Part shown: positions 956-48,389 of the stretch, piece after piece | Layout of the letters: every line of letters begins with the position of its first letter | How positions within the stretch are numbered: position 1 is the stretch's first letter | Assembly (NCBI RefSeq): GCF_002087085.1 | Contig: NZ_MWQY01000010.1 | Span: 124,001 to 185,921 of the forward strand | Direction: 5' to 3' | DNA length: 61,921 bases | Program-made: the position numbers and the translations under genes | The notes under the pieces: model-generated | Told to the model about the DNA's origin: nothing | The model's input: the letters and a program-made list of their open reading frames with translations, nothing else | Databases searched by the model: none

Positions 956-1732
956 TTAAGCGCTGTTTTCAGCCGGGTAGTCGGCAATCAGAACATCGAT
1001 TTCCGCCGCCCGCATATTTTCCTCTCCGGAGAAATCCCTGTCGGTAATCAGTACATCCACCCCGTCGGCCCGGGCAAAGACCGAAAACGCGGTGTACTCG
1101 AACTTCGACGAATCCGCCAGGATTACCCGCCGTTCGGAAACCTCCAGGGCACGCTGCTTGAGCTGGGCCTCCAGGATATTCTGGGACGAAAATACCCCCG
1201 CGGCGGAAAAGCCGGTGGCCCCCATAAAACAGGTCCCGATCTGAAAGTCCCGCAGGTTCTCTATGGCTGTCGGCCCGAGAAAACTGCCGGCCTCCTTGTG
1301 ATAGGCTCCCCCCACGGCGATCAGGCTTATTCCCGGTCTGTCCGCCAGGCGGTTCATCACGTCGATGGAGTTGGTGACTACCCGCAGGGCAATATCCGCC
1401 ACCGCCTCGGCAAAGAGCATGCAGGTGGACCCGGAATCTATGTAGATGGTGTCCCCTTCCCTGACCAGTTCCGCCGCCCTGGCGGCTATGGCGAGTTTCT
1501 TTTCCCGGTTCTCGTTGCGCCGCATGTTCAGGGTCCGCCGAAATCTGCGGTCCTCCGCCAGCTCTGCTCCCCCGTGGGTGCGGATCAGAAAGCCCATCTC
1601 CTCCAGGGTTGTCAGATCCTTGCGGATGGTAACCTCGGAAACCTTCAGCCTCGCGGTAAGATCTCCCACGCTGACGGAGCGTAATCGGGAGAGGATGGTA
1701 AGTATTTCATCGTGCCGTCTGTTGGCTGGCAT
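956..1732 (-). CDS. DeoR/GlpR family transcriptional regulator
   Basis: HTH VSEVTIRKDL, RTHGGA, IDSGST, DSSKF. Confidence 0.93.
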   Translation of the reverse strand: MPANRRHDEILTILSRLRSVSVGDLTARLKVSEVTIRKDLTTLEEMGFLIRTHGGAELAEDRRFRRTLNMRRNENREKKLAIAARAAELVREGDTIYIDSGSTCMLFAEAVADIALRVVTNSIDVMNRLADRPGISLIAVGGAYHKEAGSFLGPTAIENLRDFQIGTCFMGATGFSAAGVFSSQNILEAQLKQRALEVSERRVILADSSKFEYTAFSVFARADGVDVLITDRDFSGEENMRAAEIDVLIADYPAENSA

Positions 1733-34374: not shown

Positions 34375-35253
34375 TTATGCATTGGCAGTATCGAGTATTC
34401 TGTTCCAGCAGGCGGATATCTGGTTTTTCAGTTCGCCGCTGTCCAGTTCTACTATTGTTTTTCCCTGCACCATGGCCCGGGTAAATGACTCGTCATAGGG
34501 TAAATCCGCCAGATGCCTGATTCCCGCTTCGGCAAGGAATGCCTTAACCTGCTCCGTGGTTTCCGGGTTCAGATCGGATTTATTGATTATGCAGCCCGAC
34601 GGAATGGAAAACCTGCGGACCAGTTCATGGACCCGCTTTAAATCGTGAAGCCCTGAGACCGTCGGCTCGGTAACAAAGACTACAAAGTCCGCCCCGGAAA
34701 GGGACGACACCACAGGACATCCGATTCCCGGGGAACCGTCCACAAGAACGATCTTGCATTCCAGTTCCCGGGCAATCCGTTTTGCTTCGTTCTTGACCTT
34801 GGCTACCAGCTTGCCGGAGTTCTCCGCCCCGATGCCAAGCCGGGCATGGACCATAAGTGTTCCGGTTTTGATCCGCGATTCATACCACTCGCCCACGTTC
34901 TGGTCTTCCATGCGTATTGCTTCCCGGGGACAGATCCTGGCGCAGTAACCGCAGCCCTCGCAGTTCAGGGGGATAACCGAATAGACGCCGTCTTTTTCTT
35001 CCAGAGCATCGAAACGACATACCTCGTCGCAGGCCCCGCATCCTGTGCAGAGAGCCGGATCTATGGAGGCGAGTACGCCGCTGTAGAAGTCCTCCGCCTT
35101 TTTGACCTCCGGCTCCAGCAGGATATGCATGTCCGCGGCGTCCACGTCGCAGTCAGCGGTGACCAGGGATTTTCCTCCCAGGACGGCGAAGGATGCGGTC
35201 AGCGAGGTTTTTCCCGTACCTCCCTTGCCTGATATTACTACTATCTCTTTCAT
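34375..35253 (-). CDS. MinD-superfamily P-loop ATPase with inserted 2x[4Fe-4S] ferredoxin
   Basis: SGKGGTGKT, CTGCGAC..C, CEGCGYC..CP, DGSPGIGCP. Confidence 0.9.
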   Translation of the reverse strand: MKEIVVISGKGGTGKTSLTASFAVLGGKSLVTADCDVDAADMHILLEPEVKKAEDFYSGVLASIDPALCTGCGACDEVCRFDALEEKDGVYSVIPLNCEGCGYCARICPREAIRMEDQNVGEWYESRIKTGTLMVHARLGIGAENSGKLVAKVKNEAKRIARELECKIVLVDGSPGIGCPVVSSLSGADFVVFVTEPTVSGLHDLKRVHELVRRFSIPSGCIINKSDLNPETTEQVKAFLAEAGIRHLADLPYDESFTRAMVQGKTIVELDSGELKNQISACWNRILDTANA

Positions 35254-36119
35254 CAGGCCCGCTCCTCTTCTGCCAGCCTCTGCAGAAAGGCGTCAATATT
35301 TTCGAGTTCCCGGGCAACCTCAGGCAGTGCCTGGTAGAGAAGCTCTCCCCGGGAATACATTTCCGCTATCTCCCGCCGGTTCGGTATCGCGGCGATAATG
35401 TCGATTTTTTCCGCCTCGCAGTAGGATCGTACATCGGCATTGCCAAGGCCTTCCCTGTTTATTACCACGGCAAAGGGCTTATTAAGCCCCCGGACAGTCT
35501 CCACCGCCAGCTTCAGATCGTTGAGGCCGAAGGGTGTCGGCTCGGTAACCAGCAGAACAAAATCGATGTCCTTTACCGCCTCGATTACCGGACAGGAGGT
35601 TCCGGGGGGGGAATCGTATATCTTGCATACATCGTCGGGAAAACACTCATCCACGTAGTCGAGGGTCTGAGCAATCAGGGGTACCGCCTGCTCCTGCCCG
35701 ATATCAAGGCGACTGTCTATAAAGTCGACGCCGTCTACCCGGTAGCGCCTGACCTCCCCCATTTTTACCGGGACCATGGGAAGAGACCCGGCGGGACAGA
35801 GCTCGGAACAGGCGTAGCAGCCGTGACACAATTCCGGAAAGACCATGACCCGGTCTCCCATCTTGATTACTGCATTGAAATTGCAGACCTGCTGACAGAG
35901 ACCGCAGAGGGTGCAGCAGTTAGAATCCCAGGAAGGTACCATGCGGTGCATCTCTTTGGACTCTTCCAGCCTTCCATGAAGAAAAAGTCCTGAATTCGGT
36001 TCTTCCACATCCAGGTCCGTCAGTACCACCGGACGCTTCCGGGCCAGATAGGAGGCCAGATTTACGGAGAGTGTGGTCTTTCCGGTACCGCCCTTCCCGC
36101 TGGCTATCGCGATTTTCAT
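35253..36119 (-). CDS. MinD-superfamily P-loop ATPase with inserted ferredoxin (paralog)
   Basis: SGKGGTGKT, CTLCGLC..C, CHGCYAC..CP, DSPPGTSCP. Confidence 0.9.
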   Translation of the reverse strand: MKIAIASGKGGTGKTTLSVNLASYLARKRPVVLTDLDVEEPNSGLFLHGRLEESKEMHRMVPSWDSNCCTLCGLCQQVCNFNAVIKMGDRVMVFPELCHGCYACSELCPAGSLPMVPVKMGEVRRYRVDGVDFIDSRLDIGQEQAVPLIAQTLDYVDECFPDDVCKIYDSPPGTSCPVIEAVKDIDFVLLVTEPTPFGLNDLKLAVETVRGLNKPFAVVINREGLGNADVRSYCEAEKIDIIAAIPNRREIAEMYSRGELLYQALPEVARELENIDAFLQRLAEEERA

Positions 36120-36121
36120 CC

Positions 36122-36364
36122 TCAGCCTTTCCGCCTGTGGTTGTACAGTTCTTCCCGGACCATGGTGTGGCCGCACTTGGGGCATTTGATTTGTGTGCAG
36201 GAGACTCCCTGCTGATGGGCAACCGTGGTTCCGCACTTTACGCAGATACAGCTGCCGCCGGGACCATAGGCGCCACCGCTGTTTCGGCCCCGTCTGTTGA
36301 AACCCAGACCCCGTCCTGTTCCGGCACCCGTTCCGTCGGGTCCCGTACCATCACCTCTCGGCAT
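36122..36364 (-). CDS. DUF5320-like Gly-rich protein with a C-terminal zinc ribbon
   Basis: MPRGDGTGP..TGRGLG; CICVKC..C..CPKC. Confidence 0.75.
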   Translation of the reverse strand: MPRGDGTGPDGTGAGTGRGLGFNRRGRNSGGAYGPGGSCICVKCGTTVAHQQGVSCTQIKCPKCGHTMVREELYNHRRKG

Positions 36365-36824
36365 TATCTTCCTCTCCCATTTCCCGGCCGTACTGCCGGC
36401 AGCAATTTCCATGTCCGAAACCATCGGCCATATCCTCTATATCAGCAGAACCGCAGATCGGGCAGACTGGAAGCTCGCCGTCAAAGCCTGAACTGAATAA
36501 TTCGCCACAGCTGAGACAGCGCATCAGGTTCCTCCGGAAATGAACACAGCCGCCCTCTATACAAAGCTCCCTGCCCTCCACCAGAAAGGCGGCGACTTTT
36601 TTCCGGGCCCTTTCCAGAAGCCGGGTAAAGGTGGAGCGGGAAATTTCCATCTGCAGAGCCGCCTCTTCATGTTCCAGCTGCAGATAATCGGCGAGCCGCA
36701 CCGCTTCATACTCATCCAGAGAGAGAGCTATCTGCTCAAGCCCCCGTTTGCGTATTCCCGTGGGTTTGAATGAAGAGTAGAGAGGGGGCTTGCTGACGAT
36801 TCTGTTCTTCTGCGGCCGGGGCAC
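36351..36824 (-). CDS. DUF134 (UPF0251) predicted DNA-binding protein with a zinc ribbon
   Basis: MPRP, DEYEAVRLADY, MEISRSTF..L..AR.K, CLSC..CPIC. Confidence 0.88.
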   Translation of the reverse strand: MPRPQKNRIVSKPPLYSSFKPTGIRKRGLEQIALSLDEYEAVRLADYLQLEHEEAALQMEISRSTFTRLLERARKKVAAFLVEGRELCIEGGCVHFRRNLMRCLSCGELFSSGFDGELPVCPICGSADIEDMADGFGHGNCCRQYGREMGEEDNAER

Positions 36825-36859
36825 GATATCCTCCAGGGGTCATTACCTGACAAGCATAT

Positions 36860-36873
36860 TGCACATATGTGCA
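36860..36873. promoter_or_regulatory. Perfect 14-bp palindrome in the DUF134 promoter (candidate operator)
   Basis: TGCACATATGTGCA between minus-strand TTGACA (36882-36877) and TATGCT. Confidence 0.6.
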
Positions 36874-36963
36874 TAATGTCAAGACAGGAACTTCTTTATC
36901 TGTGTTTGATTATTTGATTTCCCTTCGTATCCTTCTTATTTTATGAGACAGGAGGTCATATTT

Positions 36964-37530
36964 ATGAGAAAACATATGTGCCTCAAACCCCGGGGATGTC
37001 TGATGATAGAGCATCGCCTGATTGAACGAGCAATAGAGATCCTGGCGGTTGAGAGGGACCGCTTGAAGGCCGGTGGAACCCTGGATCCGGTGTTCATTGA
37101 CAAGATGGTGGATTTTATCCGCACCTACGCGGACCGCACACACCATGGTAAAGAGGAGGATATTCTCTTTGAGAGTCTTGAAAGCAAGGATCTGTCCCAG
37201 GAAGAAAAAGACCTCATGCGTGAACTTATCGACGAGCACAAATACGGCCGCAAACTGACAGAGCAGCTGGTAAGGTCAAAAGAGGCTGTTCTGGAAGGGG
37301 ATAAGGCTCAGCTCGAGAGCTTACTGGATGCGGTGAACAAACTTGTCGAGTTCTACCCCGAGCATATACGCAAAGAGGATGAGCGTTTCTTTCCCGATAC
37401 GGAACGGCACTACGACAAAGAGGAACTCGACGCCATGCTGCGGGAGTTTTATGACTTTGACATGCAGATGATCCACGAGAAGTACCGCAAAACCGTGGAG
37501 AGCATCGAGGAAGAAAAAGAAAGCGTATAG
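36964..37530 (+). CDS. Hemerythrin-domain protein (start uncertain)
   Basis: EH, HHGKEE.ILF, EH..GR, HIRKED. Confidence 0.88.
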   Translation: MRKHMCLKPRGCLMIEHRLIERAIEILAVERDRLKAGGTLDPVFIDKMVDFIRTYADRTHHGKEEDILFESLESKDLSQEEKDLMRELIDEHKYGRKLTEQLVRSKEAVLEGDKAQLESLLDAVNKLVEFYPEHIRKEDERFFPDTERHYDKEELDAMLREFYDFDMQMIHEKYRKTVESIEEEKESV

Positions 37531-37537
37531 CCGTATT

Positions 37538-37966
37538 TCAGGTCTTTTTCAGCTCTTCATCAATAAGCTTTTCGAGGATGCCGCCGATCCGCGCGATTAC
37601 GTTGTGGCATCCGATTACCTCGTCGCGGTACATCTCTTTTAAACGGTCGCAGTCAGTTGAGCCAAGCTCATCCTGGACCCGGTTAAAGAGTTTCCGGTTG
37701 ATCTCTTTAAAGCGCTCGTCAACCTTGGCCCGGTCTTTAACAAAAATGGTACTGATGGCCATGATGCCGCCGGTTATTGCTCCACAGCTCTTCTCCACTC
37801 CCATGCCGCCGCCGAAAGCCGCCGAGAGCTTGAGAGCTTCCGGCGGCAGCTTGAGCTGATAGGCCTGGTTCGCGGCGAAGAGTATGGTTTCAGCGCAGTT
37901 CAGGTTTTCCCTCCCTGCGAGTCCGGCGTTGACTATGTCCTGAATCGATTCTTTTTTCCGAATCAT
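37538..37966 (-). CDS. C-GCAxxG-C-C family putative redox protein
   Basis: NCAE, FGGGMG..CGAITG, C..L, C. Confidence 0.85.
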   Translation of the reverse strand: MIRKKESIQDIVNAGLAGRENLNCAETILFAANQAYQLKLPPEALKLSAAFGGGMGVEKSCGAITGGIMAISTIFVKDRAKVDERFKEINRKLFNRVQDELGSTDCDRLKEMYRDEVIGCHNVIARIGGILEKLIDEELKKT

Positions 37967-38006
37967 GGAGATAAGTGTAATCCATGAAGCGGCAGAGCTC
38001 AATAGC

Positions 38007-38393
38007 TCAGGCCAGCCGGTCGGCTCCGGAATAGACCTCTTCAACAGTCAGATAGAAGGCCGCTTTGGGAGTCATCTGAGGGTGCTTTACATGGACCCAG
38101 TCCACGACCTCCTGGTACCTGGCACCATCAAGAGCGCAATCCACCGTACCTTTGATCTGATAAGACTTTCGCGTATCCGGATCCAGCACAACCACGCTTA
38201 ATCGCGGATTCTCTTCCAGGTTCTTCCGGGTCTTCTGAAACTTGTTGTCCGCCACCACCATGGTCTGATCGTCAAGGGCTTTGACATAGGTCACGTACAC
38301 AATATTCGGAACGCCGTCGGCGCTGGATGTGGCAATACAGGTGGGATTTGTCTTTTCGATAGCAGTAAGCACTTCTGTCGGCAATTTGGCCAT
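38007..38393 (-). CDS. Pyridoxamine 5'-phosphate oxidase-like FMN-binding protein
   Basis: ATSSADGVPN, KTRKNLEENP, YQIKG. Confidence 0.85.
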   Translation of the reverse strand: MAKLPTEVLTAIEKTNPTCIATSSADGVPNIVYVTYVKALDDQTMVVADNKFQKTRKNLEENPRLSVVVLDPDTRKSYQIKGTVDCALDGARYQEVVDWVHVKHPQMTPKAAFYLTVEEVYSGADRLA

Positions 38394-38486
38394 GGGGACT
38401 CCTTGTTGATATTTATTCTCATTGCATTCTACAGGGAGCGCTGCTATGAATCAAGATAGAGTGTTTCGAAACTTAGTGACAGGTCT

Positions 38487-39140
38487 CTAGAGTATTCCGT
38501 ATTTCTCGAAGGTTTTTACAATACCCGCACCTGCACGGAGCTCCTCCCGCACAGTATTCTCTCCCTGTACCTTCTGCCAGGCCTTCTCAATCACCTCCGG
38601 AGCGATCTTGCCGGGAACGACTACCACGCCGTCTACATCGGCATAGACGAGGTCTCCGGGGCAGACCCGGATGCCCCCGCAGACCACCGGGATGTTCCGC
38701 TCCTTGCCGTCCATACGTCCCTGGCTGTCGTAGGGGATGAGCCCCCTGCAGAAGACCGGAAAGCCCAGTTCGGTAATTTCGTGATAATCCCGGGCACCCC
38801 CGTCGGTCACGACCCCCGAGGCCCCCCTTCCGACCGCCGCGTTGGAAAGCAGCCCGCCCCAGAAGGCGGAGAGGTTCTCTGCATTGCACTGGGCCACGAC
38901 AATCTGCCCCCGCTCAAGATCGTCGATGAGTTCCATCTCAAGCTGAAAGGGCTTTGCCGGGACCTCCGTGACGGCTTCCTGATAGATGGTAACTGCCTCT
39001 CCCCAGGCTTTCATGCTGTGATTCAGGGGCCGGATGGAGGGATCCATGCACTGAATTCTGTAGCCCATGGCGTCCATTACGTCCATGAGGACCGCGGAAT
39101 AACAGGCATCCAGTTTTTCCTTGTACTGCAGGTATTTCAT
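38487..39140 (-). CDS. RraA/HMG-aldolase family protein
   Basis: WGGLL, GVVTDGGARD, V.PGDLVYADVDGVVV. Confidence 0.88.
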   Translation of the reverse strand: MKYLQYKEKLDACYSAVLMDVMDAMGYRIQCMDPSIRPLNHSMKAWGEAVTIYQEAVTEVPAKPFQLEMELIDDLERGQIVVAQCNAENLSAFWGGLLSNAAVGRGASGVVTDGGARDYHEITELGFPVFCRGLIPYDSQGRMDGKERNIPVVCGGIRVCPGDLVYADVDGVVVVPGKIAPEVIEKAWQKVQGENTVREELRAGAGIVKTFEKYGIL

Positions 39141-39194
39141 ATACCTCAAGCATAGGACGGAATACCCGGATCTGCAAGGAAAAGCAGTTACGGC

Positions 39195-39419
39195 TCAGAC
39201 CTCAAAGATTCCCTGTATCTCTATTCCTGATTGATCCACCGCTTCTTTTGCCGCTTCGGAATCCGAAGCGGCAAAGCGTACGCAGGTTCCGCAGTCAGAG
39301 GAAAGATGTCGCGGGACAGGGACAAGTCTGCAGGGGATTTCCCGCTCCTTGAGCATCTTCTCGATCCTCAGGGCGTGGCTCGTTGAATAGACAAGCAGAA
39401 CGCTCATTGGAACTTTCAT
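39195..39419 (-). CDS. DUF3343 protein (putative Se/S carrier-like)
   Basis: STSHAL..EK, VPVPRHLSSDCG. Confidence 0.85.
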   Translation of the reverse strand: MKVPMSVLLVYSTSHALRIEKMLKEREIPCRLVPVPRHLSSDCGTCVRFAASDSEAAKEAVDQSGIEIQGIFEV

Positions 39420-40573
39420 TTCGAAGTTCCTGCGGCCAGGCTTTCCACTGCGCGTACAGCAGCGTCGATATCTTCATCGCCAGTAAAAGCCCCGACAGAC
39501 ATGCGGACGGTGCCGGAAGGAAAGGTGCCGATGGTTCTATGGGCCGAGGGAGCACAGTGCAGACCGACCCGGGTAAGTATGCCGTAATCGGTATCCAGGA
39601 CCTCCCCCAATTCGGAAACTTCATGACCTTCCAGAGTAAAGGAGAGAACCCCCGTCCGCATGCTCGCATCCGCCGGTCCGTACAGAACAAGTCCGGGGAT
39701 ACCGGACAGGCCTTCCGCCAGGCGGGCAGATTGTCTCTGTTCCTCCTTGAGAATCACCTCCCTGCCCCTCTCCAGGAGCCACTGAAGACCGGCTCTCAGC
39801 CCGGCGATTCCCGCTGCATTGCAGGTACCGCTTTCAAAACGGTCCGGCAGGAACTGCGGTTGTTCCTCAGTCTCCGACCGGGAGCCTGTTCCCCCCTCTA
39901 TCAGGGGACTGACCTCCGTCTCCCGTATGCGGGATCCAAAAATCAGCCCCCCCGTACCAGGTGGCCCGTAGAGCGACTTGTGACCTGTAAATACGAGCAG
40001 GTCAATTTTATCCTTCTCCATATCCAGGGGCAGCACTCCCCCCGCCTGGGCTGAATCGACAAGAAAAACAGAACCCTTTTCACGGACGATAGCGCCGACC
40101 TCCCCGACGGGCATGATTGTGCCGGTAACATTCGACGCCGCAGACATGACCACCACATCGGCTTTCTGTCTCAAGGCCTTTTTCAGGTCCGCCGGGTCGA
40201 GGGTACCGTCCCGGCCGCAGGGAACAACTGCAAGCTCTATCCCCTCCTTTTCCAGGGACCTGAGGGGGCGCATGACCGCGTTATGTTCCATTCCCGTTGT
40301 AATGACCCGGCTGCCGGGTTTCAGGATTCCCTTCAAAGCCATGTTCAAACCATAGGTAGCATTATGGGTAAAGATTACCCGCAGGGGATCCGGTCCGCCA
40401 AAAAAATGGTTCAGGGCTTCTCGAGCCTCATACACGATCCGTGCCGCCTCCAGTGATAGACCGTGAGCCGAGCGTCCGGGATTTGCGCCGGTGCGGGTCA
40501 GAAAATCATAAACCGCTTGTGCAGTTCCGGCGGGTTTCGGGAAGGAGGTCGCCGCATTGTCCAGATATATCAT
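39416..40573 (-). CDS. Cysteine desulfurase / selenocysteine lyase-like class V PLP enzyme
   Basis: IYLDNAATS, GHKSLYGP, RVGLHCAP. Confidence 0.9.
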   Translation of the reverse strand: MIYLDNAATSFPKPAGTAQAVYDFLTRTGANPGRSAHGLSLEAARIVYEAREALNHFFGGPDPLRVIFTHNATYGLNMALKGILKPGSRVITTGMEHNAVMRPLRSLEKEGIELAVVPCGRDGTLDPADLKKALRQKADVVVMSAASNVTGTIMPVGEVGAIVREKGSVFLVDSAQAGGVLPLDMEKDKIDLLVFTGHKSLYGPPGTGGLIFGSRIRETEVSPLIEGGTGSRSETEEQPQFLPDRFESGTCNAAGIAGLRAGLQWLLERGREVILKEEQRQSARLAEGLSGIPGLVLYGPADASMRTGVLSFTLEGHEVSELGEVLDTDYGILTRVGLHCAPSAHRTIGTFPSGTVRMSVGAFTGDEDIDAAVRAVESLAAGTSK

Positions 40574-40779
40574 GCTTTGCTTATCACCATCCGGAAACCT
40601 TCGCCCTCTTCAGAGCTTTCTACTGTGCAGCCTTTTTTTTCAGCGATCCTGGTAACGTTCTCCCGGGAGGTTACCGTATCCACAAGAACGGAGAAGGGGA
40701 AAAACCCTTCCCTGATTGCATCGGTGGTCAAAATAACCGGTTGAGGACAGGAGAGTCCCCGGGCATCCACTTCCTTCAT
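40570..40779 (-). CDS. TusA/SirA/YedF-like sulfur or selenium carrier
   Basis: VDARGLSCPQP. Confidence 0.9.
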   Translation of the reverse strand: MKEVDARGLSCPQPVILTTDAIREGFFPFSVLVDTVTSRENVTRIAEKKGCTVESSEEGEGFRMVISKA

Positions 40780-41879
40780 ATTTTACGCTCCTTCATAGCA
40801 AAACCAATAAATATGCATAAACAAATCCCTATAAGAACCGCCGCCATACCGTAGGGACTCACTCCCCCGACCTGAAGACTGCCCCCGGCAAGACTGTCGG
40901 GTTTTCCTGCAAAACCAAAATTGTGAGAAATCGCCGCCCCTGCAATCATGCCAAGAACGAACACGGTGGAATCCCCGTCACCTTCACCGGATAGAATCAG
41001 CTGCCGCCCGGGACAGCCGCCAGCAAGGCAGAAAGCGAGCCCCGCCAGGAACATGCCGAGGAAATTCCAGAGATGATTCGAATGAGCCACAGGCTGCAGG
41101 GTAAATCCGAAATCAATCCTGCCGAAAATCAGGTTGACAGCGGCGGCCGACAAAAGAAGGGCGACAATGCCGCTCAGGAGATGGGTGTCCCGCATCAGGA
41201 GAACGTCCCGAACAGATCCCATGGTACAGAAGCGGGTACGCTGGGCAAGAAACCCGACACCCAGGGAAACCGCCAGGGAGATAACAAGCGGGGCACTCAT
41301 GGACCCGGGACCGGCGCTGCTGCGAAGGAGGGCTGGGAAATCTGCAACGAGCAATACAAGAAAGAGCAGCATAACAGCGGGCAGGACCAATCCGGCGGCC
41401 TGATTATCCGGTCGTGACCGCCCCAGAGTGTAGCCCGACCTGAGAAATGCGACTCCAACAGCGATTCCCGCCGTGAGACCTGCGATACCGACCACGGCGT
41501 TGAGGTCTCCCCCGGCAAGACGCAGCAAGGCCCTCCACGGGCAACCGAGAAAAGCAAGGGCGCCGATCATGGCAAAGATACCGAGTATGAAGCGGACCGC
41601 CGGAGCAGACCCCGATCTGGCTTTGAACTCACCAAAAATCATGGCAGCGATCATCGAGCCGAGAACGAAACCGGGGATCTCGGGACGCAGATACTGCACA
41701 ACCTCAGCTCGATGAAGTCCCAGGGCCCCTGCGATGTCCCGCTCGAAACAGGCAACACAGATACCCATATTGGCAGGGTTTCCCCATACCGAGAGAAGAG
41801 CAGCAAAAACTCCGATAAAGCAGCCTGTCAGAATAATACCAGTACGGGACGAGAAAAAATGTGTCAGCTTTTCTTTCAA
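40776..41879 (-). CDS. yedE: YedE/YeeE-family membrane protein (selenium-metabolism subtype)
   Basis: GNPANMGICVACF.RD.AG, LGCP, RFC, GGCPGRQ; TTG start with GGGAGG SD. Confidence 0.88.
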   Translation of the reverse strand: MKEKLTHFFSSRTGIILTGCFIGVFAALLSVWGNPANMGICVACFERDIAGALGLHRAEVVQYLRPEIPGFVLGSMIAAMIFGEFKARSGSAPAVRFILGIFAMIGALAFLGCPWRALLRLAGGDLNAVVGIAGLTAGIAVGVAFLRSGYTLGRSRPDNQAAGLVLPAVMLLFLVLLVADFPALLRSSAGPGSMSAPLVISLAVSLGVGFLAQRTRFCTMGSVRDVLLMRDTHLLSGIVALLLSAAAVNLIFGRIDFGFTLQPVAHSNHLWNFLGMFLAGLAFCLAGGCPGRQLILSGEGDGDSTVFVLGMIAGAAISHNFGFAGKPDSLAGGSLQVGGVSPYGMAAVLIGICLCIFIGFAMKERKI

Positions 41880-41939
41880 GGAAGATACCTCCCAATAGTA
41901 TGCGGCATCCTCCGGGACGGCAGAACAGACAATAGACTT

Positions 41940-42029
41940 TTACATTAATCTGCCTGACAAGGAACGGGAGTTTGCCCTGGATAAGACATCAACTGATGCC
42001 CGTGCATTTGCTCATGAACGGAGAAACAC
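41940..42029 (-). CDS. Putative leader peptide MFLRS-U-ANARASVDVLSRANSRSLSGRLM (UGA at codon 6)
   Basis: AAGGGGGT SD 9 nt before GTG; in-frame TGA at 42014-42012 followed by a SECIS-like hairpin. Confidence 0.45.
41984..42001 (-). promoter_or_regulatory. SECIS-like hairpin
   Basis: GGGCAUC-AGUU-GAUGUCU, after a 10-nt spacer from the UGA; GU in the apical loop. Confidence 0.45.
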
Positions 42030-42061
42030 GCCCTGGCTACCCCCTTATTATTTAATAATGA

Positions 42062-42090
42062 ATCCTAACATCAGTAAGATGAGCTGTCAA
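42062..42090 (-). promoter_or_regulatory. Sigma70 promoter of the yedE operon
   Basis: TTGACA-17-TAGGAT, implying a 5' leader of about 175 nt. Confidence 0.7.
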
Positions 42091-42142
42091 TGAAACAGTT
42101 TATTTCTCAATGAAAAACGCGGCAGATTCATTCAGGAAAGGT

Positions 42143-42979
42143 TTATCCCTTGACCGCGCCGGCAGTCATACCGGAAATGAGCTGTTTCTGTATAAAGAAG
42201 AACAGTACGATTACCGGGAGGGCGCTCAGGACTCCTCCAGCCGTCAACAAGCCCCACTCGATCTGGTACTCCCCGATCATGTTCTGCAGAGCGATCGGAA
42301 TGGTACGGACCCGGCTGTTTGTCAGGATAGCTGCGTACAGGTATTCATTCCAGGAGGTAATAAATATGTATATGCCGGTTGAGAAGATACCCGGCATGAC
42401 TACCGGAATAATGACCCGCACCATGGCGCCGAAGCGGGAACAGCCGTCAATCTGTGCGGCCTTGTCAAGATCGGTGGGAACGGCGTTGAAAAAACTGGTC
42501 ATCATCCAGGTTGAAAAGGGGATTGTAAATGTGGAATACGCAATAATCAGGGCAAAGTAGGTGTCCATGATGTTCAGTACTTTCATCATAATAAAGAGCG
42601 GGATAATCAGGAGCATGATGGGGAACATGTTGATTACAAGGAACTGCATAAGAAGATATTTTCTGCCCCGGAATTTATATCGGGAAAAACTGTAGCTGGC
42701 GGGTACTGTAAGGAAAAGCCCCACAAAGGCGGTAGTCAGGGCGACAATAAAGCTGTCCGCCATATTCGCTGCGAAATTCAACTTGCTGAAAAGACGCACA
42801 TAGTTTTCCCTTGTTGGATGCTCAGGAAAAAAACGAAAATCGGGGCGGTAGAGTTCCTTCTCCTGGGTTATGGATGAAATGAAGGTCCAGAGGTACGGTC
42901 CCAGGGCAAACAGGAGGATCAGAATAATCGGAAGATATATTGTGAATATTCGTTTAACCGGATGCTTTTTTGCCGTCAT
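42143..42979 (-). CDS. Carbohydrate ABC transporter permease
   Basis: KAAQIDG loop, SWNEYL. Confidence 0.92.
   Translation of the reverse strand: MTAKKHPVKRIFTIYLPIILILLFALGPYLWTFISSITQEKELYRPDFRFFPEHPTRENYVRLFSKLNFAANMADSFIVALTTAFVGLFLTVPASYSFSRYKFRGRKYLLMQFLVINMFPIMLLIIPLFIMMKVLNIMDTYFALIIAYSTFTIPFSTWMMTSFFNAVPTDLDKAAQIDGCSRFGAMVRVIIPVVMPGIFSTGIYIFITSWNEYLYAAILTNSRVRTIPIALQNMIGEYQIEWGLLTAGGVLSALPVIVLFFFIQKQLISGMTAGAVKG

Positions 42980-48073: not shown

Positions 48074-48147
<74 letters not shown>

Positions 48148-48316: not shown

Positions 48317-48389
<73 letters not shown>

Follow-up and report, generated by a model that had tools for sequence, protein, structure and literature searches.

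A candidate leader-peptide attenuator with UGA-selenocysteine as the regulatory codon upstream of bacterial yedE genes

Ribosome-mediated attenuation is classically known from the amino-acid operons trp, his, leu, thr, pheA and ilv. These attenuators combine a short open reading frame (ORF) led by a Shine-Dalgarno sequence (SD), in which one or more codons are regulatory, with RNA segments forming helix 1:2, the antiterminator 2:3 and the terminator 3:4, the position of the ribosome picking the fold. Here we present a computational analysis of a stretch of 61,921 nucleotides (nt) from contig NZ_MWQY01000010.1 of assembly GCF_002087085.1 (henceforth the window, whose numbering is used throughout), which carries on its minus strand a comparable leader upstream of yedE, the first gene of a selenium operon. 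We consider it likely that this leader is a ribosome-mediated attenuator in which the regulatory codon is an in-frame UGA to be read as selenocysteine (Sec), such that a stall at the UGA would turn the downstream genes ON and read-through would turn them OFF. This leader and its relatives share with the amino-acid attenuators the SD-led short ORF, the arrangement of competing helices and, in some copies, tandem regulatory codons. They differ in several respects: the proposed regulatory codon is a stop that would be recoded for the 21st amino acid, for which a Sec insertion sequence (SECIS) hairpin and SelB are needed; this hairpin occupies the loop that separates regions 1 and 2; what competes at this codon is a release factor rather than an empty A site alone; and the version found in the window would end in occlusion of the ribosome-binding site (RBS) instead of a terminator.

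Among selenium-linked elements, the one in the leader of the E. coli selAB genes, a SECIS-like structure which work by Thanbichler and Boeck in 2002 reportedly showed to bind SelB, is similar in that a SECIS-type hairpin lies in the 5' leader of selenium-pathway genes and affords feedback through the Sec machinery. It is said to differ in needing no translated upstream ORF (uORF) with a UGA, the SelB complex binding near the start site. In the spirochaete Treponema primitia, selenium controls transcription of fdhF(Sec) by translational uncoupling inside fdhF (PMC3892789), so that there, too, an undecoded UGA-Sec alters downstream transcription. As that article presents it in its available part, the event takes place inside the selenoprotein gene, whose own transcript falls when selenium is absent; a dedicated leader ORF, alternative helices and control of other genes are all lacking, and the polarity is opposite to that predicted here. 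The introduction of the same article sets out the principle of leader-peptide attenuation and cites attenuators engineered for unnatural amino acids (Liu et al.), for which it states that a natural counterpart is unreported, attenuation by way of a rare amino acid being known solely from engineering. These resemble the present leader in coupling attenuation to the decoding of a recoded stop within the leader peptide, but are synthetic, whereas the leader described below is natural and widespread. In mycobacteria, translation of upstream poly-Cys short ORFs likewise reports the supply of one amino acid to an operon, but by way of sense codons, in leaderless form and, in the accessible text, with no recoding element (bioRxiv 10.1101/834739). 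Finally, in the system of TnaC and release factor 2 (RF2; PMC8429421), a ribosome is held at the UGA ending a short leader peptide and downstream RNA events depend on this hold; there, free tryptophan is sensed through the nascent chain and the UGA is a true stop.

A full-text literature search, with most subscription journals outside its coverage, recovered no description of a Sec leader peptide or a yedE attenuator, and the literature so covered describes no cis-acting bacterial selenium sensor. In the comparative-genomics study from which the proposals of YedE, YedF, DUF3343 and a LysR-type regulator come (PMC5322559), neither 'leader' nor 'UTR' occurs as a word in the part available, and in the corresponding part of a 2026 review of prokaryotic selenoproteomes YedE is named only as a selenoprotein family (PMC13188914). 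What would be new here is thus the use of a known principle, ribosome-mediated attenuation, with UGA-Sec as the sensed codon. If true, this would be the first natural attenuator with a recoded stop as its regulatory codon, extending a textbook mechanism to selenocysteine, and the cell would be measuring usable Sec-tRNA/SelB and not a selenium compound.

The leader in the window and its recurrence upstream of yedE

The original prediction, made from the window sequence alone, had placed a promoter, an SD, a GTG start, a TGA, a spacer, a hairpin and a frame open for 23 more codons on the minus strand, and each of these was recovered at its predicted position. The stop codon of an ABC-permease gene lies 5' of the leader on that strand. 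The leader and the operon behind it comprise the following features:

42062..42090, minus strand: sigma-70-type promoter, with -35 TTGACA at 42090-42085, a 17-nt spacer, -10 TAGGAT at 42067-42062 and TG ahead of the -10
42046-42039, minus strand: ribosome-binding site of the uORF, AAGGGGGT, within 42032..42046 and also region 1
42044-42032, minus strand: region 1, the 5' strand of helix 1:2 (1:2 duplex -17.9 kcal/mol)
41940..42029, minus strand: leader ORF (uORF), with GTG at 42029-42027, TTT CTC CGT TCA, TGA, 23 codons and TAA at 41942-41940
42012..42014, minus strand: in-frame UGA, the proposed regulatory Sec codon, codon 6 of the uORF
41984..42011, minus strand: SECIS-like element, a 10-nt spacer (42011-42002) followed by a 7-bp stem with a 4-nt loop
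41966..41980, minus strand: region 2, CCAGGGCAAACTCCC, in the uORF directly 3' of the hairpin, with region 1 or region 3 as the proposed partner
41904..41913, minus strand: region 3, the switch strand, GGAGGATGCC, with region 2 or the yedE ribosome-binding region as the proposed partner
41877..41893, minus strand: yedE SD GGGAGG (41893-41888), region 4, GGTATCTTCC (41889-41880), and TTG start (41879-41877)
39195..41879, minus strand: putatively controlled operon of four genes, yedE first

A promoter scan independently called the TTGACA/TAGGAT pair (10 of 12 matches) as the sole promoter-like site in 41700-42300. In a same-genus relative the gene upstream is a different one, but the sequence is kept from the promoter onward, including the TGA, the hairpin and the open frame. 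With the TGA read as Sec the uORF gives a 29-residue peptide; the TTG of yedE at 41879 lies 60 nt past its TAA and is in frame with it. The hairpin is formed by GGGCATC (42001-41995), the loop AGTT (41994-41991) and GATGTCT (41990-41984), with seven pairs, two of them G-U. Taken alone, the window copy is unremarkable (whole-leader fold z-score -0.11; hairpin segment -9.8 kcal/mol), and the case therefore rests on comparison. The terminator scan called no terminator-like site in the window leader. The window leader and six other leader loci matched no Rfam family at gathering or E-value thresholds, and three leader peptides, with the TGA read as U, matched nothing in Pfam or NCBIfam. A home-made covariance model built from 22 leaders, whose E-values are rough, finds a single site in the genome that contains the window. 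One metatranscriptome study has, in three of its runs, contigs that span 41776-42032, i.e. the 5' end of yedE and the leader up to the uORF start, with nothing farther upstream; this coverage is a weak hint of a transcript starting near the predicted promoter, from contigs that show neither starts nor strand and in which DNA may be present.

The original prediction had tied the leader to the Sec trait, and this was borne out. The genome that contains the window has tRNA-Sec (selC; 66.4 bits), selA (486 bits), selB (310.5 bits) and selD (355.2 bits), all above their cut-offs and clustered on one contig. Its selD itself carries one in-frame TGA, after which follow 10 nt and then a stem with a 4-nt loop, the same geometry as that of the leader hairpin. 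A tRNA-Sec above the cut-off was found in all 11 leader-bearing genomes tested, i.e. this one and 10 others. In two leader-bearing genomes the tRNA-Sec gene is directly beside the yedE leader locus (G245:C74:9091-9178 and G027:C37:16833-16919).

The architecture sought in relatives, namely an SD, a start codon, 2-9 codons, a TGA, 10-13 nt and a hairpin, was found upstream of yedE at 25 of 110 genome loci and at 57 of 80 metagenome loci, counts that overstate independence as the sequences are related. A class-wide sample had YedE in 51 of 401 genomes, and 10 of the 30 loci fetched carry the architecture, several with different stem sequences. A one-genome-per-species scan with a YedE alignment returned 578 relatives, and 15 of the best 80 loci carry it, while one more, L077 (3-nt loop, 7-nt spacer), is doubtful and was excluded from the seed alignment. 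The carriers among these best 80 belong to Anaerolineae/Chloroflexota, with one Bacteroidia record and one Dehalococcoidaceae record in addition. A mechanical scan for an SD, a start, up to 12 codons, a TGA, a hairpin and an open frame yielded 0.20 matches per 300 nt upstream of yedE (21 of 110 loci), as against 0.0106 per 300 nt in the remaining locus DNA (both strands, 1.08 Mb) and 0.0095 in shuffled upstream regions, i.e. an enrichment of about 20-fold over control DNA. The 80 metagenome loci were picked by YedE similarity alone and constitute an independent set. All matches of the covariance model in the 57 positive loci lie on the strand of the gene and 150-350 nt upstream of it, and at least six of the 23 loci with no match have less than 300 nt of upstream DNA. 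A model match at L045 (E 0.75), 1.1 kb from yedE, was not counted.

The individual features of the uORF are conserved as well. An in-frame start with an SD is present in 54 of 56 metagenome copies and the TGA in all 56 rows spanning its column (one row cut at its 5' end being left out). In a structure-blind MAFFT alignment of 43 leaders, from which the near-duplicates L173 and L143 of an initial 45 had been dropped, the TGA is the sole invariant triplet. In all 56 copies the frame past the TGA has another 18-37 open codons (mode 25), whereas in each of the two other frames 15-16 of the 56 have fewer than 15 open codons after it. Between the TGA and the hairpin lie 11 nt in 44 of 50 copies and 10-13 nt in all 50, and the second base of the loop is G in 50 of 51. 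Among the metagenome matches the SECIS-like stem is 98% paired, compared with 39-53% in slid registers, and six of its seven pairs have changed on both sides. This is the conserved spacing of SD, start, UGA and hairpin, with covariation in the stem, that the original prediction had asked for in yedE leaders. The residues before the Sec are alike across copies, ending in ..HHRRT, with synonymous codon variety; compensatory changes in the hairpin alter the peptide encoded by it (GAGWRP, IAGRRS, ASVDV). A second in-frame TGA two codons farther upstream, with one Ile or Val codon in between, is seen in 5 of 56 copies (L199, L177, L179, L139 and L185).

In E. coli fdhF, the upper stem of the SECIS lies about 11 nt from the UGA and has a G in its apical loop. 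More generally, a bacterial SECIS is defined as a hairpin immediately 3' of the UGA, as put in the available text of PMC5322559. The window presents an in-frame UGA in a candidate translated frame, a hairpin directly 3' of it, a G in the loop and the Sec gene set. From these sequence features we infer that the leader hairpin is SECIS-like, and predict that SelB binds it and that Sec is inserted at the UGA.

Presence and absence of the leader can be seen side by side in one genus with complete 2.8-Mb genomes: L025, L030, L032 and L038 have a leader of about 190 nt between the promoter and yedE, and in L027, L033 and L036 the promoter runs straight into the ribosome-binding site of yedE, making a natural presence/absence pair. 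In one family of the window's class (L021-L024, L026, L028, L029, L031, L034, L035 and L037) yedE has no leader and is divergent from a cysteine-desulfurase-like gene. A short inverted repeat (of the CCATTG .. AATGG type) overlaps a promoter-like AT-rich stretch at these loci and is possibly the operator for a protein regulator.

Competing helices and the expression platform

In the Anaerolineae-type copies an intrinsic terminator (-12.7 to -32.7 kcal/mol) follows the uORF stop in 50 of 56 cases, sitting 50-85 nt past it and ahead of yedE; the terminator scan independently called those of L050 and L047. Helix 1:2 is made of the five codons before the TGA and the TGA itself, paired with a G-rich box late in the uORF. 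Helix 2:3, the antiterminator, is made of the RNA from just past the hairpin through the G-rich box, paired with the 5' arm and loop of the terminator. On the structure-blind alignment, helix 1:2 is 74% paired versus 37-60% in slid registers (covariation 0.30 versus 0.10-0.18) and helix 2:3 is 82% paired versus 27-64% (covariation 0.32 versus 0.06-0.13), while the SECIS and terminator helices reach 83% with a covariation of 0.38. Four structures of similar energy (-22 to -32 kcal/mol) are available to the reference leader. Cognate antiterminator duplexes average -23.5 kcal/mol versus -18.4 kcal/mol for non-cognate ones, and for 6 of the 11 leaders no more than 3 shuffles out of 200 gave an antiterminator duplex as good; pairing of the uORF-end box with the terminator 5' arm alone was uninformative (cognate -17.8, non-cognate -17.4 kcal/mol). 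As read from the alignment, helices 1:2, 2:3 and 3:4 of the Anaerolineae type are arranged as in the trp attenuator: segment 1 is the exact stretch that a ribosome with the UGA in its A site would cover, and segment 2 falls in the uORF portion that ribosomes would reach only once Sec has been inserted.

A further element in these copies is a CU-rich box located 10-20 nt past the uORF stop, just ahead of the terminator, which is complementary to the SD of its own yedE (e.g. L044, L049-L052 and L083). In several Anaerolineae-type loci the box and the SD covary by eye, and the cognate duplexes are modestly better than non-cognate ones (-15.2 versus -12.1 kcal/mol). Such a pairing would be a second, translational layer of control.

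The window represents a second, spirochaete type, for which six rows from five lineages were aligned from the SD to the yedE start. Here, helix 2:3 joins 41976-41967 with 41913-41904 (-15.1 kcal/mol) in the same columns of all rows; it is 92.6% paired versus 30-52% in slid registers, with three pairs changed on both sides, and is supported for the window. Helix 3:4, in which the switch strand pairs with the end of the yedE SD and the spacer after it (41889-41880; -17.5 kcal/mol, a value reached by 2 of 100 shuffles), is 88% paired versus 50-63% and is plausible, whereas the case for helix 1:2, between the uORF SD region and region 2, is weak. A search for a region-3-like strand in 15 terminator-less leaders was significant in seven for helix 3:4 and in three for helix 2:3. 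By analogy, the window most likely holds a translational, RBS-occluding version of the same switch. At position 41977, inside region 2, metatranscriptome contigs of three runs read T in place of C on the plus strand (A in place of G in the RNA), a strain variant within the proposed pairing strand.

The original prediction had also envisaged mutually exclusive pairings in this part of the leader. Competing helices with covariation do exist in relatives, but the conserved helices differ from those it proposed: GGCAGA/UCUGCC and UGCCGUCC/GGAUG..GCA are in the sequence, yet unconserved beyond the same genus, and the same lack of conservation applies to the GGAGG-UAU-CUUCC fold-back at the yedE SD. 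The CUCCC box, which it had likened to an anti-SD, is real, but is part of region 2 and would pair with the uORF SD or the switch strand. Similarly, it is more probable that the CUUCC ahead of the yedE start pairs with the switch strand than with the yedE SD.

Mechanism, polarity and alternatives

The architecture, its conservation, the helix covariation, the terminators, the gene associations and the Sec machinery emerge from sequence comparison, which thereby supports the core idea of the original prediction, i.e. that UGA/SECIS decoding in a leader ORF may report the supply of Sec-tRNA and switch the yedE operon. The mechanism we propose on this footing is as follows. A ribosome would start on the short uORF and reach the UGA, at codon 6 in the window, where the SECIS-type hairpin would recruit SelB carrying Sec-tRNA(Sec), and the outcome would pick among the competing helices. 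In the Anaerolineae type, a ribosome held at the UGA, as opposed to one rapidly released by RF2, would cover region 1 and leave region 2 free to form the antiterminator 2:3, upon which the selenium genes would be transcribed. Once Sec is inserted, the ribosome would instead cross region 2 to the stop about 25 codons on, and the terminator 3:4 would form. If there is no translation, helix 1:2 would form and the state would be OFF. By analogy, the switch strand of the window (41913-41904) would have two alternative partners, region 2 (41980-41966) and the yedE ribosome-binding region (41889-41880), and region 2 could also be held by the uORF SD region (42044-42032).

As to polarity, Sec shortage would probably cause the stall and turn yedE ON, and Sec sufficiency would cause read-through and turn it OFF, because this matches classical attenuator logic and because selenium depletion raises yedE mRNA in Methanococcus maripaludis, by 5.3 log2 units in the data presented in the available part of PMC11097638. 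The original prediction held the direction of the switch to be undeterminable from sequence; it can now be argued for, if not read directly from the leader. In E. coli, Sec insertion is slow, and one can envisage the opposite polarity, a form of substrate induction, in which slow Sec decoding in the presence of selenium would lengthen the dwell at the UGA and give ON, and RF2 release in the absence of Sec would lead to helix 1:2 and OFF. The logic of the helices says only that a ribosome held at the UGA means ON, and the sequence does not tell which condition lengthens the dwell. We nevertheless regard this opposite polarity as unlikely, since after Sec insertion the ribosome would cross region 2 and favour the terminator, since classical attenuators switch on under shortage, since yedE mRNA goes up in selenium-depleted M. 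maripaludis (PMC11097638), and since shortage is when selenium uptake and selD are most needed.

A more remote alternative is that the leader is a SelB operator working without translation, SelB on the hairpin, with or without Sec-tRNA, being enough to shift the fold and the uORF being incidental. The SECIS geometry of the hairpin and its location in the 5' leader of selenium genes would fit such an operator, but the uORF has kept its SD, its start, the UGA, the open frame and a stop in a set position, unlike what is expected of a selAB-type SelB operator. The in-frame start with SD in 54 of 56 copies, the invariant TGA at a fixed 10-13 nt from the hairpin, the frame open over 18-37 codons up to a positioned stop in all 56, the tandem TGAs in 5 of 56 and, in the Anaerolineae type, the coincidence of region 1 with the exact stretch that a ribosome at the UGA would cover make it improbable.

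Decoding of the UGA would by itself yield a Sec peptide, and the residues before the Sec, ending in ..HHRRT, are alike, so that the uORF could be taken for the gene of a small selenoprotein (of about 30 residues) that is merely first in the operon. We give this very little credence: the residues after the Sec track the RNA helices, with compensatory changes in the stem rewriting the peptide; the conserved codons before the UGA make up one strand of helix 1:2; a terminator separates the uORF from the operon in 50 of 56 copies; and the peptide has no Pfam or NCBIfam match. It is equally hard to credit a mini-ORF closed by an ordinary UGA stop, with no Sec inserted, in which a nascent peptide that senses a small molecule would keep RF2 from acting, as TnaC does. 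UGA, a stop specific for RF2, is used in every copy and follows a basic peptide motif, as such a mini-ORF would have it, but the open, length-constrained frame after the UGA, the 11-nt spacing and loop G of the hairpin and the tRNA-Sec in 11 of 11 genomes would then go unexplained. Lastly, a chance hairpin after a chance TGA, against which the original prediction had cautioned and which the unremarkable window copy taken alone might suggest, is refuted by the roughly 20-fold enrichment, the recurrence in metagenomes, the covariation of the stem and the invariance of the TGA.

Several observations weigh against the UGA-Sec attenuator itself or against parts of it. In the window, the hairpin is weak, with its two G-U pairs, and a ribosome at the UGA is expected to have its footprint 3' of region 1, leaving how a stall there would free region 2 a matter of argument. 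In the window-type alignment, helix 3:4 has no compensatory change and L014 has no good version of it, and the covariation of helix 1:2 was not distinguished from that of slid registers in these six rows. Minimum free energy (MFE) folding with the ribosome footprint masked gave no consistent switch of the terminator in 11 leaders, nor of RBS accessibility in 12; MFE folding was dropped as evidence either way, and the polarity is not settled by thermodynamic modelling. No leader is detectable at 84 of the 110 genome-derived YedE loci, the 22-row seed was chosen for having the hairpin, which makes its own covariation partly circular, and the kinship of the sequences bears on all the counts. The leader of L223 (G448:C76), together with its terminator, precedes MntA-like and chorismate-mutase genes instead of selenium genes, and that of L219 precedes a gene for a 309-residue protein of no family. 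Finally, the predicted Sec insertion would have to take place just 2-9 codons after the start, and RF2 would be expected to end the wait at the UGA, which is a weak point and raises the question of how RF2 is kept from doing so. The ..HHRRT residues, whose codons also form one strand of helix 1:2, might slow release at the UGA.

We lean, with some reserve, towards a broader form of the UGA-Sec attenuator. In this form, trp-like attenuators would make up a natural family that is widespread, with members in Chloroflexota/Anaerolineae, in spirochaetes and in one record each of Bacteroidia and Dehalococcoidia; the family would read the supply of the 21st amino acid by stop-codon recoding, with the ..HHRRT nascent peptide and/or SECIS-bound SelB holding off RF2, and would govern a selenium regulon of yedE, selD and sclA along with unexpected members such as a double-cubane-cluster reductase.

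Genes downstream of the leader and surroundings in the window

The genes behind the leader were sampled in 151 genomes from the class to which one Anaerolineae record belongs; 18 of these genomes have 20 model matches between them. Thirteen of these matches precede yedE. Three precede a selD that holds a Sec codon, one directly, at L214 (315-1334, minus strand; 340.6 bits with the TGA as U), and two from 0.4-0.85 kb away, at L208 and L206, where the gap contains apparent gene remnants. A single match precedes an SclA-like gene and another the gene of a double-cubane-cluster anaerobic reductase (NF040772, 462 bits; PF06050). The latter, at L205 (G401:C185), is a second full leader (about 1501-1590, minus strand), with a uORF that ends in ..HDRRT before the TGA, a hairpin and a terminator, ahead of the reductase gene at 59-1333 on the minus strand, and hints at a selenium-linked role for the double-cubane reductase family. 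The last two of the 20 matches are the leader before the gene for the 309-residue protein and that before the MntA-like and chorismate-mutase genes. At L223, the MntA-like nucleotidyltransferase antitoxin gene is at 1787-2260, and the contig has a second leader 2.7 kb downstream of the first, ahead of yedE; the first leader may be a displaced or duplicated copy.

The leader would lend indirect support to YedE as a component of selenium uptake. It may also serve as a sequence marker for new selenium genes, with the double-cubane reductase and the 309-residue protein of no family as candidates, and it could further be used as a compact selenium-responsive genetic part.

In the window, the four genes of the putatively controlled operon are:

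41879-40776, minus strand: yedE (TIGR04112, 470.6 bits)
40779-40570, minus strand: TusA/YedF-like gene (PF01206)
40573-39416, minus strand: SclA-like cysteine desulfurase gene (TIGR01977, 452.4 bits; NF040779, 390 bits, below its cut-off)
39419-39195, minus strand: Se/S-carrier (DUF3343) gene (PF11823)

Downstream of this operon, 35253-39149 of the minus strand encodes RraA-like, PNPOx-like, C_GCAxxG_C_C redox, DUF134 and ParA/4Fe-4S proteins; selenoprotein forms of the C_GCAxxG_C_C family are listed in the available part of PMC13188914. Elsewhere in the window there are two divergent tRNA genes, at 48074-48147 on the minus strand (64.6 bits) and 48317-48389 on the plus strand (71 bits).

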